From contig CAYGGE010000004.1 in NCBI GenBank assembly GCA_964349485.1, positions 4,628 to 68,627 on the forward strand: DNA of 64,000 bases. The letters run 5' to 3'. The first letter of the stretch is position 1, and every line of letters begins with the position of its first letter. Below are positions 2,446 through 49,394 of this stretch, in pieces. Source of the stretch: an uncultured Candidatus Saccharibacteria bacterium. GTDB taxonomy: Bacteria > Patescibacteriota > UBA1384 > CAYGGE01. Made by a program: the position numbers and the translations under genes. The notes under the pieces were generated by a model. The model saw only the letters and a program-made list of their open reading frames with translations. It was not told the DNA's origin and did not search any database.

Positions 2446-2925
2446 ATGATACTCAAGTTTCTCTACACCCTATTTCTTGGGCTGATGGTCGCTCTATTTG
2501 TTGGGTTAGGCGTCGCTGCTTTTTATGAAGCGCCAAAAGAACCAGAATATCCTGAGTTACTAAGCGAACCGATGCTAGTCAAAGAGGGCGTGTCCCAAGA
2601 ATCGGAAGGACAAAAGACGGCTCGCCGGGAATATAACAAAGAACAGAAAGAGTTTCGGAAGTTATCTAGCATCTACAACCGCAACGTCTCAATAGTTGCC
2701 ATGATCGCGGCAGTCATCATCTTAGTCATAAGCCTTAGGCTTGTGACTAAGATATTGCTCATGTCTGATGGTTTACTGCTCGGTGGCGTCCTAACTTTGC
2801 TTTACAGCTTAATCCGCGGCTTTATGGCTGAAGACGCCAAATATCGTTTTGTAGCAGTTACTATTGGTTTATTTATCGCCCTAGTTGTCGGATTTCTTAA
2901 ATTTATCCGTCACGAAGAGAAATAG
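2446..2925 (+). CDS. Hypothetical membrane protein
   Basis: 159 aa with an N-terminal and a C-terminal cluster of predicted TM helices and a charged linker. Confidence 0.5.
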   Translation: MILKFLYTLFLGLMVALFVGLGVAAFYEAPKEPEYPELLSEPMLVKEGVSQESEGQKTARREYNKEQKEFRKLSSIYNRNVSIVAMIAAVIILVISLRLVTKILLMSDGLLLGGVLTLLYSLIRGFMAEDAKYRFVAVTIGLFIALVVGFLKFIRHEEK

Positions 2926-5626: not shown

Positions 5627-5989
5627 TTATTTCTTCGTTAAGCCTTTTAGAAAATCAACTAACTTACTCGGTTCAGTTTCGGCCTTGAAGAGGTAGCCTG
5701 CGGCACCTAGTTCCTCACCTTTTTTTGCGCTGACTTCAGGAATATTGGTCAATAAATAGACCGGAATATCCTTGGTCTCATCGCTCGCTTTAAACTGCTT
5801 CAATACATCGAGGCCGTTTAGCTTGGGCATGATGATATCGAGCAAGATAACGTCTGGTTTAGTCGTAATCGCTTTGTCTAAGCCTTCCTCACCATCGACT
5901 GCGGTGACTACCTCGAAACCTTCGGTCTTCATTTTGTCTTGGTACATGGTTAAGAGGGCTTTTTCGTCATCGATTATTAGTACTTTCAT
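5627..5989 (-). CDS. Single-domain response regulator (CheY-like receiver)
   Basis: IIDDE, phospho-acceptor Asp in LLDIIMP, Thr in LLTNIP and Lys in YLFK are all canonical. Its start abuts the stop of the upstream kinase. Confidence 0.85.
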   Translation of the reverse strand: MKVLIIDDEKALLTMYQDKMKTEGFEVVTAVDGEEGLDKAITTKPDVILLDIIMPKLNGLDVLKQFKASDETKDIPVYLLTNIPEVSAKKGEELGAAGYLFKAETEPSKLVDFLKGLTKK

Positions 5990-7366
5990 CTATGAACCTT
6001 TCTTAACTTGTTTGGTGTTAACTAGTGGTAGGCGGATCTTAAAGATCGTACCTTTCCCAACGATCGAAGTAAAGCTAATTGCTCCGCCATGGGTCTCGAT
6101 AATCCGCTTTGCAATGTAGAGGCCTAGGCCAGTTCCTCGAGTGTCTAGATCAAAACTGTTGCTTGCCCGATAGAATCGCTGGAAAATGCGCGACTGTTCT
6201 TCTTCTGGGATGCCAACGCCATTATCTTCGACTGTCACGATGACATCCTTGTCATTTGGATCAACCTTCTGCATCCGGACAATAATCTCCTTAGCATTGT
6301 TATCGGTACCTGAATATTTGATAGCATTATCGATCAAGTTACTAAAGACTTGTTCAAGCTGTATTTTGTTACCTCTAATCTTGTTGACTTTCTGAGTGAG
6401 TTCCATAGATAAGGCGACAGATGAGCTGATAGCCTTCTCTTGAAGAGTTTGGACGCTCTCGCTAATTACTCGGTTTAAGGAGATTGGTTCATAGCGTAAG
6501 GTGACGTCTGTGTTAAGGTGGGTGATGTTGAGAAGATCAGCGATAATATTGCCAAGACGTAAACTGCCGTCGTGAATTTCTTTCATGTATCGTTTCTGCT
6601 TGGCGTTGAGCTTACCGGCATCGCCATCGTAAAGCAGCGAGGCATAGCCCCGGATGATCGAGAGTGGCGAGTTTAATTGATGAGCCGTCATGGAGACGAA
6701 GCCTTCCTCGATCGCTTCGACATCGTTTAATTTCTTATCAACTTCCCGTAGTTTCTCTTCGAAAAAGGTTCTTTCACTTTTTTCATGACGGAGTTGGATG
6801 GCCAAGGCGCGGGCGAAAAAACTGACTAGAATTAGGAATGATATCTGAAAAGTGCCGATGTAAAACGGATCGATTACCGCGAAAAAGCTAGTATTTAAGA
6901 TAAGATTACCGGCGATAAACATGCTGGCAAAAACGGCAATAACCAGTGAATTTAAGATGTTGAGAGCAAATGCCGCCGCCGCGATCGGCAGGATATAGAG
7001 GGTGAAAAAGTAGATATTGTAGTCTTTAGCCAGGGTTGCCAAGATGCCAATGAAGATAACATCGGCAATGTCTTTGATGTAATAGCGTTGCTTATCGTTG
7101 AAATAACGGTAGATCACACTGTAGTAGAGCAGAGCAAACGCGATTACGACTCCAGCAAGCCATAGAGTACTCTCGTCTTGAAAGATATTTGATTTAAAAC
7201 TACGCAAGACAATGATAATTGTCAGGATGATAATCCAAACTGTCGCCTCTGCTAGACGGATGACAGTTTCTTGCCAGTGGTAGTGCAGATGGCTTTTATT
7301 GAGCCCTGGATGCTCATTGTCTGCATGACTTTCGGTGGCGACTGCCGCTCGTTCCATGAGTCCCAT
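5990..7366 (-). CDS. Membrane sensor histidine kinase (HisKA + HATPase_c)
   Basis: H-box HQLNSPLSIIRGYASLL, N-box DNAIKYS, G-boxes EDNGVGIP and GTGLGLYIAKRI, and an N-terminal multi-TM region. The likely start is MGLMERAAV, which has a GGGGA SD; the track start at 7432 lacks one. Confidence 0.85.
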   Translation of the reverse strand: MGLMERAAVATESHADNEHPGLNKSHLHYHWQETVIRLAEATVWIIILTIIIVLRSFKSNIFQDESTLWLAGVVIAFALLYYSVIYRYFNDKQRYYIKDIADVIFIGILATLAKDYNIYFFTLYILPIAAAAFALNILNSLVIAVFASMFIAGNLILNTSFFAVIDPFYIGTFQISFLILVSFFARALAIQLRHEKSERTFFEEKLREVDKKLNDVEAIEEGFVSMTAHQLNSPLSIIRGYASLLYDGDAGKLNAKQKRYMKEIHDGSLRLGNIIADLLNITHLNTDVTLRYEPISLNRVISESVQTLQEKAISSSVALSMELTQKVNKIRGNKIQLEQVFSNLIDNAIKYSGTDNNAKEIIVRMQKVDPNDKDVIVTVEDNGVGIPEEEQSRIFQRFYRASNSFDLDTRGTGLGLYIAKRIIETHGGAISFTSIVGKGTIFKIRLPLVNTKQVKKGS

Positions 7367-7442
7367 GTTCCCCACTTTCTTATCACTACTATAGCAGGGG
7401 GAATGACCTGTCCGCAATGCGTCTAACGACAACTGGTTAGAA

Positions 7443-7630: not shown

Positions 7631-7944
7631 GTTGTCCTCCTATATTATGTTCCCTTCGTATCTTGCCGGATCCATTTGAAAAGTTTTTATGCCTGTTATG
7701 CGTTATCCCACTGACCGCCGGGGACAACCCTATACTTATTACTTGGGCAAGTGTGTGACGAAGAAAACGATTGTTACAGTGCGTACCCTCCTTGGAAAGA
7801 GAACTCCCTTCCTTTTTGGTACATGTATACTATAACACGCATTTTGACTGCTGTCAAGAGTGGTACGTTGGAGGACGAGGCATAGCCTCTTTCGGGTTTA
7901 CTGACGGAATATTTGTGTGTTAGTCAAAGGGTGTTTGGTTAGTC

Positions 7945-39238: not shown

Positions 39239-39562
39239 GTGGGTCAACGAGAAGGAAAAGTTACGATCGACGACTTGGCGGTGATGATTGCTCACGGCTT
39301 TGACGAAGTTCACAAGAAGTTTGACCATGTTGACAAGAAGTTTGAAGCAGTTCACCAAGAGTTTGAAACTGTTCATCAAGAGTTTGAACAGGTACATACC
39401 GAACTACATGGGATCAACGAACGTCTGGATGACCATACCGAAGAACTTAAAGAGATTCGGCTTGTGCTTCGTCGCGTTGAACGTAAACAAGACTCCCAAC
39501 AGACGATCATCGACCGTCACGACGGTAGAATCACCGCTCTCGAAAGTAATTCACACCTCTAA
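39239..39562 (+). CDS. Small coiled-coil protein built from heptad-like tandem repeats (xVHxEFE)
   Basis: GTG start with an AGGAGGG SD. Protein KKFDHVDKKFEAVHQEFETVHQEFEQVHTELHG. The minus-strand ORF over the same DNA is a repeat-induced shadow. Confidence 0.5.
   Translation: MGQREGKVTIDDLAVMIAHGFDEVHKKFDHVDKKFEAVHQEFETVHQEFEQVHTELHGINERLDDHTEELKEIRLVLRRVERKQDSQQTIIDRHDGRITALESNSHL
39305..39409 (+). repeat. Tandem 21-bp repeats, about five copies, inside the coiled-coil CDS
   Basis: Units resembling GTTCAyCAAGAGTTTGAAnnn repeated head-to-tail. Confidence 0.6.
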
Positions 39563-40141: not shown

Positions 40142-41326
40142 ATGCCAAGAATAGTTTTTGACGACGATCAGAATAATGGTCAAAAGCCGCGACAAACTGG
40201 TCGCTTTTTGGTGGTCTTTTTAGTTTTAGCGCTTGTGATGGGTATGATCGGCGCTACGACTTCATTAATTATACTTTCGGAAAATGCTCCAATACGCCGT
40301 ATCCTCGGTATTAAGGAGGATGGGACATTTAATCTGGCCCGTACGGTGACCGAGAAATTGGTGATTGAAGAGAGTAATGGTTTCATTCAGACGGTTAAAA
40401 AAGTTAGTCCAGCGGTAGTCTCGATTACTACAAAGACCGAAGGGACAGATTTTTTTGGTCGGGTGATTGAGCGTGAGGGGGCAGGGACTGGGTTCATCAT
40501 CACTACCGATGGTTTGATTGTCACCAATAAGCATGTTGTGAGCGACGAGAACTCAACCTATACCGTAGCCACTACCGATGGAAAAAAGTTCGATGCGCAG
40601 GTCAAGGCGCGCGATGCTTTTGCTGATTTGGCGATACTCAAGATTGAAGCTACTGGATTGCCTGTTGTTGAGTTGGGCGACTCAGACTCGCTTGAAGTTG
40701 GTCAATGGGTGGTGGCGATCGGCAACGCACTCGGACAGTTTCAGAATTCAGTCTCGGTTGGTGTGGTCAGCGCGAAAGATCGACGACTAGATAATCAAGG
40801 TTCGACGGAGCTGACTGGTTTAGTTCAGACCGATGCGACTATCAACCCAGGTAACTCTGGTGGACCACTTGTCAACCTCAAGGGGCAAGTCATCGGTATC
40901 AATACGGCAATCGCTTCAACCACCGGTTCCTCGATCGGGATTGGTTTTGCGATTCCGGTTAACTCGGTTAAGAAAGCGATCGACTCAGTACGGAAAACTG
41001 GCAAGATTACTCGACCGATGCTCGGCGTGCGCTATGTGCCTCTTGACGCTGTTATCGCGAAAGAACTCGGCTTGAAGGTCGAAAATGGCAACCTGATTGT
41101 CGGCGAAGGTGTCAGAGCTCCCGGAGTGTTGCCGGGTGGTCCAGCCGAAAAAGCCGGTTTGCAAGAGAGAGATATCATCTTAGAACTAAACGGTGAACGG
41201 CTCGATGGCGACAAGTCGCTAGCCAGTGTGTTGAATAACTACTCCCCAGGCGAGGTAGTGACTCTGAAGGTGTTGCGGGCTGACAAAGAGTTAACCATGA
41301 AGGTGACTTTGGAAGAATTGAAGTAA
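40142..41326 (+). CDS. htrA: HtrA/DegP-family serine protease with a PDZ domain
   Basis: GTGFIITTDGLIVTNKHVV (His), D in the catalytic triad context, and GNSGGPLVNLKGQVIGINTAI (Ser). Membrane anchor and C-terminal PDZ. Confidence 0.85.
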   Translation: MPRIVFDDDQNNGQKPRQTGRFLVVFLVLALVMGMIGATTSLIILSENAPIRRILGIKEDGTFNLARTVTEKLVIEESNGFIQTVKKVSPAVVSITTKTEGTDFFGRVIEREGAGTGFIITTDGLIVTNKHVVSDENSTYTVATTDGKKFDAQVKARDAFADLAILKIEATGLPVVELGDSDSLEVGQWVVAIGNALGQFQNSVSVGVVSAKDRRLDNQGSTELTGLVQTDATINPGNSGGPLVNLKGQVIGINTAIASTTGSSIGIGFAIPVNSVKKAIDSVRKTGKITRPMLGVRYVPLDAVIAKELGLKVENGNLIVGEGVRAPGVLPGGPAEKAGLQERDIILELNGERLDGDKSLASVLNNYSPGEVVTLKVLRADKELTMKVTLEELK

Positions 41327-41352
41327 TACCATAACTGGCTTACAATACAGCG

Positions 41353-41394
41353 CGAGGCCAGGAGCATCAGCTCCTGGCCTCGGTGCGTTTTCGG
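41353..41394 (+). terminator. Intrinsic terminator after htrA
   Basis: CGAGGCCAGGAGC-atca-GCTCCTGGCCTCG, a 13-bp stem, followed by GTGCGTTTTCGG. Confidence 0.65.
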
Positions 41395-41413
41395 ACAGTT
41401 GGTTATGTTCCGT

Positions 41414-41827
41414 CTACTTATTGATCTGATCGAATACGCGCGTAACATATTGGATCAGTTCGATCTGGTTGAACGGTTTCTTTAGGAAGCAATCAACCCC
41501 GCTCTGCCATGCCCTGAACACGTCGGCGTCCGTCGCTTTCTCGGACAACACGAAGAACGGGATATCAGCCGTATTTGGATCTTGCTTGAGTTCACGCAAC
41601 AGCGCGTACCCATCCATGTACGGCAAGGTGATTTCAGTCACCACCATGTCTGGGGTTTCGCTACGCACTTTCTCGAGTGCTTCACGGCCGTCGTAAGCGA
41701 CTATCACGTCATAGCCGGCACGCATCAATGCATGTTCCACTAACCTGGTGATATTATGCTCTTTGTCCACCACCAGGATCTTCCTGGGCATGCTGTTCTC
41801 CTTTCCTGTCACAGCCCGTTGTGGCAA
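41414..41827 (-). CDS. Atypical single-domain receiver protein (phospho-acceptor Asp replaced by Glu)
   Basis: Aligns to CheY with VVDKE instead of DD, VVTEITLPYMDG (E at the D57 position), a Ser at the T87 position and a conserved Lys (LKKPF). Confidence 0.65.
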   Translation of the reverse strand: MPQRAVTGKENSMPRKILVVDKEHNITRLVEHALMRAGYDVIVAYDGREALEKVRSETPDMVVTEITLPYMDGYALLRELKQDPNTADIPFFVLSEKATDADVFRAWQSGVDCFLKKPFNQIELIQYVTRVFDQINK

Positions 41828-41858
41828 AGTCTACCTGAAACATGCCTAACTCGCAACC

Positions 41859-42272
41859 TTACCAGCGGTGGGCTGTTCCCGGGTAGAGGATCCTTTGGAT
41901 GAAGACATCCAACATTCTCAGGTCTAGAGGCAAGTCTAGAACACAATCTGCACCCGCAGCCCAGGCTCTATGAGCCTGATCGTCACTGCTTAGCATAATC
42001 ACCGGCATGTCACGAGTTACTGGATCTGCCTTGATTGTCCTTAGGATCTGCCAGCCATCACGATCGGCAGGTCCATCGGCATATGTGACTACTAGCGAAA
42101 TATTCACGTTGGATCTGACCCACTCGAGTCCTTGGCTGGCGAGATCGGTAGCCAAGGTCTTGTAAGCTCGTCTCTCTAAACACCTGACGATTTGTGCACT
42201 AAAGCACTCTTCGGCGATCACTAAGATCGTACGCGTTCCATCCATCCTTTTTCTCCATTTTCTCCATCGCAA
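41859..42272 (-). CDS. Degenerate receiver-like domain protein (pseudo-receiver)
   Basis: IAEE instead of DD, LVVTYADGPADRDG with no clear phospho-acceptor Asp, and no Lys at the K109 position (CVLDLPLD). Confidence 0.5.
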   Translation of the reverse strand: MRWRKWRKRMDGTRTILVIAEECFSAQIVRCLERRAYKTLATDLASQGLEWVRSNVNISLVVTYADGPADRDGWQILRTIKADPVTRDMPVIMLSSDDQAHRAWAAGADCVLDLPLDLRMLDVFIQRILYPGTAHRW

Positions 42273-42308
42273 AGTGCCTGGTCATTATATCCGAACCCGT
42301 AGCTCAAG

Positions 42309-43205
42309 TCAACTGCCAACATGCTCAGTCATTAACATGTAGCGATCCAAACCTCGTAAATCTTTCCATACTTGCATCTTGGCCTTTGGCCAGAAAGATC
42401 GCATCAGCTTATGCATTAACTCTCCTTGAGTCTCGTCAATCTCACAAAAAATGGCTCGAGGGACCTTTCTTGAATCGACTAGTTTTTTGAATAGTTGTCG
42501 GTAAAGATCCAGTCCGTCTACTCCTCCGTCTAAGGCCAGAGAGGGTTCAAAGTCTTTGACATCTGCATCAAGTTTTGCGATGCGCTGGTGCGGCACATAG
42601 GGCAAGTTAGCGACAATGACTGGCTGATCTTCGAGTAACTCATCACTGTCCTCGGGCAGTAAATCAGCGCAGATAAATGTTATGACTTCCTGAAGCCCAT
42701 TGGCCACAGCGTTCGCACGGGCAACCTCTATTGCCGCATTCGAGACATCAATCGCATATATTTGTGGGGTGGTATCTGGACCTGCTGAAAGTTTGGTGGC
42801 GAGAGCGATAGCGATGTCCCCGCTACCGGTGCCGAGGTCAATAATCTTGCTTACCGGTTGTTGGTCGTGAGCGGCTTGCTGGGTAAAATCGACTACAAAC
42901 TTAACGAGTTCTTCCGTTTCTGGACGGGGGATTAGAACGTCTGGTGTGACTTTGAGTTTTAGGCCACAGAAATAGGTTTCACCCGTGATGTAGGCGACCG
43001 GTTCGTGTTTAGCTCGGCGATAGAGGAGTTGCTGGTATGAATTGAACTGTTTGTTCGATATTGCATGGTTGGCATCACGAAACAATTCGGTCCAGTTTTT
43101 ATTGACTACCCCTTGCAACAACAGTCGAGCTGAGCTGATCGGATCGATAACTGCAGTTTGTTGGAGTTGCCTGACTCCTTGTTTGAGAGCGTCACCAATT
43201 GTCAT
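42309..43205 (-). CDS. prmC: Release factor glutamine N5-methyltransferase
   Basis: SAM motif IIDLGTGSGDIAIALA and substrate motif NLPY (NPPY family). Confidence 0.85.
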   Translation of the reverse strand: MTIGDALKQGVRQLQQTAVIDPISSARLLLQGVVNKNWTELFRDANHAISNKQFNSYQQLLYRRAKHEPVAYITGETYFCGLKLKVTPDVLIPRPETEELVKFVVDFTQQAAHDQQPVSKIIDLGTGSGDIAIALATKLSAGPDTTPQIYAIDVSNAAIEVARANAVANGLQEVITFICADLLPEDSDELLEDQPVIVANLPYVPHQRIAKLDADVKDFEPSLALDGGVDGLDLYRQLFKKLVDSRKVPRAIFCEIDETQGELMHKLMRSFWPKAKMQVWKDLRGLDRYMLMTEHVGS

Positions 43206-45997: not shown

Positions 45998-46456
45998 ATG
46001 GACATTAAAGCAACTGAAGTTAATGAACTGCGAAAGCGAACCGGCATTGGTCTCATGGATGCTAAGAAAGCCTTGATTGAGGCCAATGGTGACATGGATA
46101 AAGCGATTGAAGCGTTGAAAGCCAAAGGCGCCGCTGTGGCCGCTAAGAAATCTGACCGTTCGACTGGTGAAGGCATGGTTGAAACCTATATTCACGCTGG
46201 TCGTATCGGTGTCATGGTCGAAGTGAACTGCGAAACCGATTTTGTGGCTCGCAATGAAGAGTTTCGGGGCTTTGCTCACGATGTAGCGATGCAAATTGCC
46301 TCCATGGCCCCGGCATCGGTTGATGATTTATATGAACAACCTTTTATCAAGGACTCCAGTCGAACGATCCGCGATCTGCGTTACGACTTGGTCCAAAAGA
46401 TCGGCGAGAACATTCAAGTCAGTCGATTTATTCGATATGAATTAGGGGGAGAATAA
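45998..46456 (+). CDS. tsf: Elongation factor Ts, short form
   Basis: ELRKRTGIGLMDAKKALIEANGDMDKAIEALKAKG (UBA-like N-terminus), 152 aa. It keeps the conserved rpsB-tsf adjacency. Confidence 0.85.
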   Translation: MDIKATEVNELRKRTGIGLMDAKKALIEANGDMDKAIEALKAKGAAVAAKKSDRSTGEGMVETYIHAGRIGVMVEVNCETDFVARNEEFRGFAHDVAMQIASMAPASVDDLYEQPFIKDSSRTIRDLRYDLVQKIGENIQVSRFIRYELGGE

Positions 46457-48231: not shown

Positions 48232-48268
48232 AAAGGGCCGGCACCTACTGGTGCCGGCCCTTTGTTTA
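48232..48268. terminator. Bidirectional intrinsic terminator
   Basis: AAAGGGCCGGCACC-tact-GGTGCCGGCCCTTT followed by GTTTAGTG. Confidence 0.6.
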
Positions 48269-49246
48269 GTGCCTGACTTTAGGCCACCTGACGTTGCCGT
48301 CCGGTGCTAGTCTGACCAGCCGGTCATCCCACCACTCGATTTCTGACCAAACGGCCGTGTCGTGGGTGGTGGTCATGAACCGGCCGGGCTTGTTGGTGTC
48401 GATCTCAGTGACTGACAAGCAATCGCTAGTCAGGATCGCCACTCGGTAGATGCTTGCTTTATAGCTGGGATCAAACCTCACATCTCTCACGGCACTCGCC
48501 TTGTTAGGTGTCGTGTAGATAGCAGGCAAGGTCACTGGCAGGCTGGACTCGATGTCCCAGAGGACGGCGAGCTCACCCCCAGCGACGGCCAGATATCTGT
48601 CGTCTGGCGAGAATTCCATGGTGACGACTGGCGAGCATTCGCTCTCGTCTTTTAGGCTAGTTTTTTGTCTCCCGCCGTACATGATCGACACAACGGTTAT
48701 TGTCCCGTCAACCTCAGCCCAAGCGATCCGGTGACCGCTTGGGGAGATCGCAAGAGCAGTGATCATTTGATCACCTTGTCCTAGGAGATCCAATCCTCTG
48801 GCGGATTGCAAGACCACTCGATAGTAGTCATCATTTCGAGTGACCATACATAACTCGCCGCCTCGACTGACCGCGATCTGACGGACCATATCAGGTAATC
48901 CTTCGATCCAGCATGCCTGCTGGTTAAGGCAGTGGACCTGACCATGCGCATCAAGGGTGTACACCTTTGTGGCACTTTCTGAGAGGCCGATCTGGGTCAC
49001 TGGTGCCGTTCTGCCTCTTGCCTGTCTTTTGGTCTTAGCGGTGCTTAAGGTATCGACAATCTTGACGGTACCGTCAGTCATGCCGAAGACCAGAGTGTTC
49101 CCTGTGGCCGCCATGCTGGTGACCGTCGCTTCACGTCTGCATAAGGCGAACGGAATAGCAAGGACAGCTAGAATGATGCCTACACTCCAACACACTGCCG
49201 TATCTGTTCGAGACATGTTTTCCCTCTCCCCGACAAGGACCGGCAA
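48266..49246 (-). CDS. Membrane-anchored WD40-like beta-propeller protein
   Basis: N-terminal TM helix, then repeated ...DGTVKIVD..., SPSGHRIAWAEVDGTITVV and SPDDRYLAVAGGELAVLWD blades. GC-rich. Confidence 0.55.
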   Translation of the reverse strand: MPVLVGERENMSRTDTAVCWSVGIILAVLAIPFALCRREATVTSMAATGNTLVFGMTDGTVKIVDTLSTAKTKRQARGRTAPVTQIGLSESATKVYTLDAHGQVHCLNQQACWIEGLPDMVRQIAVSRGGELCMVTRNDDYYRVVLQSARGLDLLGQGDQMITALAISPSGHRIAWAEVDGTITVVSIMYGGRQKTSLKDESECSPVVTMEFSPDDRYLAVAGGELAVLWDIESSLPVTLPAIYTTPNKASAVRDVRFDPSYKASIYRVAILTSDCLSVTEIDTNKPGRFMTTTHDTAVWSEIEWWDDRLVRLAPDGNVRWPKVRH

Positions 49247-49394
49247 TCCGGTCAGTTGATTCTGATTAGAAATTATTCAGGTTCAGAACCGGTGATTATA
49301 GCAGATTATCAGCTTGAGGTCAAGGGCATTGGTAATTGACGCATAAATTGCAAACTGATGATCAACATTAGAAGTTCTTTCTCAAATACGAACA

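Follow-up and report, generated by a model that had tools for sequence, protein, structure and literature searches.

A tandem pair of aspartate-less receiver proteins in a variable gap beside prmC-prfA of a Candidatus Saccharibacteria bacterium

Two adjacent minus-strand genes in a 64,000-nucleotide stretch of DNA from an uncultured Candidatus Saccharibacteria bacterium (contig CAYGGE010000004.1 of assembly GCA_964349485.1; the whole stretch is called the window below) encode small receiver-like proteins, A and B. Neither protein has an Asp at the phospho-acceptor position, and both are very probably pseudo-receivers that are not phosphorylated on Asp; they probably work independently of phosphorylation. 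A belongs to a family of single-domain response regulators whose catalytic residues are otherwise preserved, and B is far more eroded. The two genes are:

41414..41791, minus strand: gene for protein A, an open reading frame (ORF) of 125 aa, stop codon within the coordinates
41859..42245, minus strand: gene for protein B, an ORF of 128 aa, stop codon within the coordinates

Residues were mapped using PDB pairwise alignments, MAFFT alignments with E. coli CheY, and a family profile hidden Markov model (HMM) built from 89 sequences. The residues found at CheY positions D12-D13, D57, T87 and K109 are, in that order:

Protein A: D9-K10, E53, S83, K105
Protein B: A11-E12, Y55, S86, L105

No Asp was found at the acceptor position of A or B in any of the PDB pairwise, MAFFT or profile HMM alignments. 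An earlier note on this DNA had proposed that both proteins lack the acceptor Asp and had named a profile alignment as the test of this; the profile alignment places no Asp there. In A, the acidic pair is broken (D9-K10) and the acceptor is replaced by Glu (E53). The Ser at the end of β4 (S83) and K105-P106 at the end of β5 are kept, and the aromatic switch residue is F102. The note had read A in the same way, with Lys for D13, Glu for D57 and retained Ser/Thr and Lys positions. B has neither the DD pair nor the acceptor Asp; it keeps Ser (S86) at the end of β4 and has L105-P106 in place of Lys-Pro. The absence of an Asp at position 57 and of the conserved Lys, which the note had also claimed for B, is borne out by Y55 and L105, but the pair given there as EE is actually A-E. 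That reading was one register off, since E13 occupies the position of the family's conserved Glu after DD. In one pairwise alignment (with 3c3m), B is offset by a single residue, which brings T54 to the acceptor position. B does have an Asp, D57, two residues past the acceptor position and within a lengthened β3-α3 loop; the β3 strand ends at Y55 in the AlphaFold model. This loop is longer by one residue or by two, according to the alignment used, and three residues are deleted at the β4-α4 junction.

Against Pfam Response_reg (PF00072; cut-off 30.2 bits), A scores 84.4 bits and is recognised as a receiver domain. B scores 27.7 bits, just under the cut-off, and is not recognised on sequence alone. 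AlphaFold predicts the element order β1-α1 through β5-α5 for A (predicted local distance difference test, pLDDT, 88.4) and a (βα)5 fold for B (pLDDT 90.2). In Foldseek, the model of A matches OmpR/PhoB-type receivers with a template-modelling (TM) score of ~0.9, and the model of B matches DivK and the FrzS receiver with TM scores of 0.83-0.86; for the two models together, TM scores with solved receivers run from 0.83 to 0.93. Since A lacks the second residue of the acidic pair (DD2) and the acceptor Asp, and B lacks the first residue of the pair (DD1), the acceptor Asp and the Lys, both fall under the definitions of pseudo-receivers and of aspartate-less receivers (ALRs) (PMC12632262; PMC4395418). 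The pair matches none of the curated NCBIfam models above their cut-offs. The response regulator at 5630..5989 in the window, which adjoins a histidine kinase gene (5993..7432) and which the note had used as a control, scores 74.3 bits against Response_reg and keeps all the catalytic residues (DD/D/T/K, read from its translation). Four assemblies, drawn from at least two sequencing runs, agree on every base of the pair, which excludes a sequencing or assembly error.

The family of A and the ancestry of B

The closest relatives of A in a collection of 5.8 billion proteins are single-domain response regulators that are 55-62% identical to it; by tblastn, identity to this family reaches 64%. When one genome was scanned for each species, 554 related stretches were found. 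The taxonomy was taken from the best 80 of these 554, nearly all of which come from Armatimonadota metagenome-assembled genomes (MAGs; Chthonomonadales, Fimbriimonadales and Abditibacteriales) and a few from Chloroflexia. The family motifs are MMP[YH]MDG and DADVF[KR][GA]W (loci L005-L081). A bears the family signature: it has DADVFRAW and PYMDG, shares the length of the family and its α4-β5 signature, DADVFRAWQSGVDC, and reaches 178.5 bits with the family profile. The family is highly conserved across Armatimonadota orders, with the motifs MMPYMDG and DADVF[KR]GWQSGVDCYLTKPFNP at loci L010-L081; examples of members are L006 6001..6411 and L008 6001..6420. Most members are orphans, with an adjacent histidine kinase at 3 of 72 loci (by tblastn with one kinase query, a weak test), and at a subset of loci the gene lies near Rho and BFN-domain genes. 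Canonical copies occur in tandem or triplicate in three MAGs (L023, L043 and L057), so tandem duplication does take place in this family.

In all 89 other family sequences examined, which represent ~80 species, the catalytic set of acidic pair, acceptor Asp, Thr/Ser and Lys is in place. The first residue of the acidic pair is Glu in one sequence, Ser replaces Thr in one, and the switch Tyr is Phe in one. Neither A nor B has this invariant set together with the switch Tyr (CheY Y106 position). In a core set of 81 family sequences, 44 columns are conserved at 95% or more. Of these 44, A has changed 15; the family median is 0 and the maximum 11. Its changes include D10K, L52T, D53E, M55T, M56L, T83S, A84E, Y102F and T104K, and two family-invariant residues of α1, V15 and N21, are also altered. 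By segment, the changes cluster in β3, the β3-α3 loop, β4 and the β4-α4 loop, while α2, α4, the SGVD loop and KPFN are at least as well conserved in A as they are in ordinary members. The three closest relatives of A (L005, L010 and L011) are 79-94% identical to one another but only 61-62% identical to A, which therefore sits on a long branch. Judged from these alignments, with 89 other family sequences canonical, the degeneracy is not due to chance. The note's view that the degeneracy is specific to the pair holds both within the window and within the family of A. The check that it had proposed, of whether relatives share the substitutions, returned 89 canonical family sequences and six syntenic relatives without the pair.

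B is much more isolated. No relative above ~37% identity was found in the searched databases, a word-indexed search returned B itself and two matches at 31-34% only, and among 1.84 billion representative proteins only B itself was found at E below 1e-30. The best domain for B among the top 150 of these representatives scores 51.7 bits. The best single-domain matches of B are members of the family of A (59.6 and 58.1 bits), and B shares the family-specific R-A-W...G-x-D-C stretch, retaining only R-A-W and D-C from the family motif. These resemblances are suggestive, and descent of B from the family of A is likely but not proven. A recent tandem duplication was considered and rejected, as the upstream regions and the genes of A and B align no better than shuffles (P ~0.19 and ~0.14); for this reason the 19-nt imperfect repeat D1 was treated as chance. 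A search around the insert for flanking repeats or mobile-element ends found only short repeats at chance level.

Genomic setting and predicted expression signals

The minus-strand gene order is prfA (44167 to 43205), prmC (43205 to 42309), B (42245 to 41859) and A (41791 to 41414). Beyond A, an htrA-like protease gene runs convergently and ends at 41326. The pair is transcriptionally downstream of prfA-prmC, not upstream as the earlier note had it. The note was correct that two adjacent minus-strand ORFs lie here, but not about where they start: the likely starts are ATG 41791 (A) and ATG 42245 (B), and TTG 41827 and TTG 42272 only begin the maximal ORFs. The ATG starts are preferred because a GGAG-type ribosome-binding site lies 6-7 nt ahead of each, because that of A yields the family N-terminus MPRKIL, and because public gene calls on four assemblies use them (128 and 125 aa). 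The signals around the pair are:

41798..41807, minus strand: Shine-Dalgarno-like AGGAAAGGAG, 6 nt ahead of the ATG of A, read from the sequence
42246..42256, minus strand: Shine-Dalgarno-like GGAGAAAAAGG, immediately ahead of the ATG of B, read from the sequence
42284..42312, minus strand: predicted sigma-70-like promoter TTGACT-17-TATAAT with 11/12 matches, upstream of B and overlapping the prmC stop codon
41353..41382, no strand assigned: perfect 13-bp GC-rich hairpin (repeat I3) between the stop codons of A and the htrA-like gene

The hairpin has a T-run on the plus strand only, and is probably a terminator common to A and the htrA-like gene. No terminator-like site was found between prmC and B. 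On the simplest reading of these predicted signals, B and A would form a bicistron that has its own promoter and ends at the hairpin, with read-through from prmC possible. The intact reading frames, ribosome-binding sites, promoter match and hairpin suggest that both products are apparently expressible. Sites with at least 11/12 promoter matches number 3 in the window, compared to 1.1 expected from shuffles. The other two are also on the minus strand, one at 7829..7857, upstream of the kinase-response regulator operon 5630..7432, and one at 49295..49323, upstream of the ORF 48266..49246.

The host does not obviously belong to the Armatimonadota. Its GatB protein has relatives at 64-81% identity and, beyond these, only ~50% matches to named Patescibacteria or Chloroflexota. 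Six relatives (L090-L095) share the order gatCAB...mscS-htrA followed, across a gap, by prmC-prfA...rpmE-rpsB-tsf. The B-A pair is absent from the htrA-prmC gap in all six. The coordinates of the gap are:

Window: 41326..42309
L090: 12226..12854
L091: 12255..12772
L092: 13579..14312
L093: 8900..9528
L094: 8361..8365
L095: 10208..10239

The gap is empty in L094 and L095. In L091, L092 and L093 it holds one small ORF each; the three are mutually unrelated, and one has a weak HATPase_c_2 match. The gap of the closest relative, L090 (GatB 81% identical), holds a single unrelated canonical response regulator, which has 63% GC in a locus of 52% GC and its own consensus promoter TTGACA-17-TATAAT. This gene was rejected as an orthologue of the pair, being 21% identical to A, without a meaningful match to B, canonical in its residues and 63% GC; it is GC-rich and apparently foreign. 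Two different receiver genes are found at the same htrA-prmC site in sister lineages. A conserved association of the pair with prfA-prmC is ruled out by the six syntenic relatives that do not have it. B-A is therefore an accessory insert confined to this lineage, in a gap of variable content. That it lies beside prfA-prmC appears to be an accident of the site at which accessory genes insert.

The closest homologue of A in the protein databases, P0002, is 62% identical and canonical. It lies in assembly GCA_034680565.1 (locus L005), which comprises more than 42,000 contigs and also holds two relatives of the host (L091 and L094; GatB 75% and 72% identical). This assembly behaves as mixed or metagenomic, so P0002 is not confidently assignable to the host clade. 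Outside the response regulator genes, no synteny with the window was found at the P0002 locus or at the Armatimonadota loci. On the sequence comparisons, A may be a paralogue, an orthologue that was translocated, or a gene acquired horizontally.

Other features were seen near the pair. In L002, from the Logan assembly ERR3094295, a 1-bp gap relative to the window at ~2505..2601 causes prfA to be called as two genes; the gap is probably an error of assembly, as prfA is intact in the other three assemblies. EF-Ts, encoded at 45998..46456 of the window and by the equivalent genes in L090, L091 and L093, has only 152 aa in the host and in its relatives. A 107-aa ORF on the plus strand at 39239..39562 is repetitive and probably coiled-coil (KKFDHVDKKFEAVHQEFETVHQEFEQVH...); its likeness to the accessory ORF of L091 is weak and non-significant (24% identity, E = 0.04).

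Proposed mode of action and alternatives

Taken as a whole, with class and mechanism blended, the explanation that we favour is reasonably probable; the specific mechanism within it is tentative. In A, Lys10 would fill the Mg2+ site and pair with Glu53 and Asp9, an arrangement that would hold A in one kinase-independent conformation. The retained Ser and Lys would help to fix the pocket in one state. This fixed conformation may be 'on-like', since D13K is an activating substitution in CheY and Asp-to-Glu substitutions activate some regulators. A would still offer the family's conserved α4-β5-α5 face to the family's partner, and its output would be set by the amount made rather than by phosphorylation. 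B would most likely be a far-diverged paralogue that works by binding other proteins, whether it partners A or competes for the target of A, on the pattern of the heterodimer and competitor models for WhiI/BldM and CmrT. The adaptor or decoy role that the earlier note ascribed to such domains is, for A and B, an extrapolation from other pseudo-receivers. A bolder form of this mechanism strikes us as quite improbable. It would make A a natural double-locked receiver that hard-wires its pathway on and B a co-expressed paralogue that titrates or partners A, with control by transcription only; read-through from prfA-prmC might then couple the module to the translation-termination operon.

Several observations weigh against the favoured explanation. 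Free CheY D13K-Y106W is inactive-like in structure until its target binds, which makes a 'locked on' A a hypothesis that is far from certain. The earlier note had called the Glu of A phosphomimetic; this applies to some response regulators, but Asp-to-Glu alone is often insufficient and is not activating in CheY (PMC4395418). The AlphaFold model of A has a root-mean-square deviation of 1.0 to BeF3-PhoB compared to 2.1 to apo PhoB, but AlphaFold is unreliable for separating these states. The closeness to BeF3-PhoB was not regarded as evidence, and the calling of A as active or inactive from AlphaFold and Foldseek was dropped. For B, the score against the family profile (53.9 bits) is lower than that of E. 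coli CheY (105 bits), and no trace of a tandem duplication was found between A and B at the nucleotide level. The GC content at third codon positions is 0.66 in A compared to 0.51 +/- 0.04 in the genes of the window, and a typical 0.53 in B, so the two genes may have different histories; this composition hints that A at least is of foreign origin. Finally, only one population is known to carry the pair. The four assemblies do not differ across it (100% identity), and population polymorphism was rejected as a test of selection for lack of variation.

On a rival reading, A and B, acquired or duplicated, would be unselected relics on their way to becoming pseudogenes, their catalytic residues lost under relaxed constraint and not in the course of gaining a phosphorylation-independent function. 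The pair occurs in this lineage only and not in the six syntenic relatives, its gap holds differing accessory genes in those relatives, A is on a long branch, and B falls under the Pfam cut-off and has no orthologue in the searched databases. Such decay is nevertheless unlikely. Both frames are intact although the proteins have diverged from the family at ~40% (A) and ~65% (B) of their amino acids, and by a rough estimate stops or frameshifts would be very probable in a neutral 128-codon frame over this amount of change. Each gene retains a ribosome-binding site, the pair keeps its near-consensus promoter and its terminator hairpin, and AlphaFold gives confident receiver folds for both sequences. 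In A, the changes focus on the active site and α4 and the β5-α5 loop are preserved, which resembles retargeted rather than lost constraint. Of about the same low probability is a role in which the pair, as decoy or sink, would draw off the kinase or the partner of a canonical member of the family encoded elsewhere in the genome, and would modulate a phosphorylation-dependent pathway instead of acting by itself. This role overlaps the favoured explanation and is compatible with it. It draws on the canonical state of the family everywhere else, on the canonical tandem and triple copies in L023, L043 and L057, on the presence of P0002 in an assembly that also contains two host relatives, and on the binding-competitor and heterodimer models discussed for CmrT and WhiI/BldM. 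The canonical copy itself is a presumption, the available sequence covering 64 kb of this genome, and the altered V15 and N21 of A, family-invariant residues of α1, weigh against this role. α1 is the usual kinase-docking helix.

Least probable of all is covalent regulation near the old site, by Ser/Thr/Tyr phosphorylation of T54 or Y55 in B, Asp phosphorylation of D57 in B, or methylation of E53 in A. In 12% of ALRs the acceptor residue is Ser, Thr or Tyr, which could be targets of kinases, and Glu could be methylated (PMC4395418); B does have T54-Y55-A56-D57 at the end of β3. The same source, however, cites no bacterial pseudo-receiver that is regulated in this way. With DD1, the conserved Lys and a normal β3-α3 loop all missing from B, no metal or phosphoryl pocket is left in it, and no Ser/Thr/Tyr kinase or methyltransferase adjoins the pair except prmC. 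The residue that PrmC methylates is the Gln in the GGQ motif of release factors; it is not known to methylate Glu.

Comparison with known receivers and significance

Pseudo-receivers account for several percent of ~two million receiver domains; known examples work through dimers, heterodimers or partner binding, and their modes of action in bacteria are largely unknown (PMC12632262). Aspartate-less pseudo-receivers are a class already described, and A and B fall within it: both have the receiver fold with the acceptor Asp replaced, and no partner kinase lies beside them. In ALRs, Glu is the commonest acceptor substitute (26%), and only 29% keep an acidic residue as the second of the pair (Maule et al. 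2015, PMC4395418). A shows this typical pattern, with the first acidic residue and the Lys kept, the second acidic residue lost and Glu at the acceptor position. RitR (E9-K10-N53) likewise has Lys at the second acidic position (PMC4395418). The acceptor Tyr of B is a rarer replacement, and B is also without the Lys and DD1. In contrast to most characterised ALRs, which are fused to DNA-binding or other outputs, A and B stand alone in tandem.

A naturally has both substitution types of the CheY D13K (and D13K-Y106W) and Asp-to-Glu mutants, in K10 and E53, and it likewise keeps the phosphoryl-contacting Ser/Thr and Lys. The CheY mutants differ in being engineered, in having a known chemotaxis target, in that D57E alone is non-activating, and in that A has F rather than Y or W at the switch. 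For B, the receiver of Myxococcus xanthus FrzS (PDB 2gkg, 2i6f) ranks with the best matches both in sequence and in fold. It acts by protein-protein interaction and has a degraded acidic pocket, as does B, but it is fused to a long coiled-coil protein and is only ~22-25% identical to B, and common descent is unsupported beyond the superfamily. At 20-25% identity, the resemblance of B to FrzS and DivK is one of kind, not of membership. From the Armatimonadota response regulator family, A and B differ in their lost catalytic set, their accessory gap and their other host lineage. The acceptor Asp is replaced by Glu, as in A, in plant PRR/TOC1 and in the receivers of fungal Rim15p. These multidomain proteins are eukaryotic, and their likeness to A is convergent only.

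The pair is otherwise ordinary. It reveals no new kind of system, and its prfA-prmC neighbourhood is incidental. It is modestly special as the lineage-specific degeneration of a family that is otherwise invariant across 89 sequences from ~80 species, and because the two substitutions of A are exactly those by which laboratory work has freed activity from phosphorylation, while its partner gene encodes a far more eroded B. Set beside the invariant family, A and B offer a clean natural comparison, and comparing A with a canonical homologue could reveal which receiver surfaces stay constrained once phosphorylation has been abandoned.

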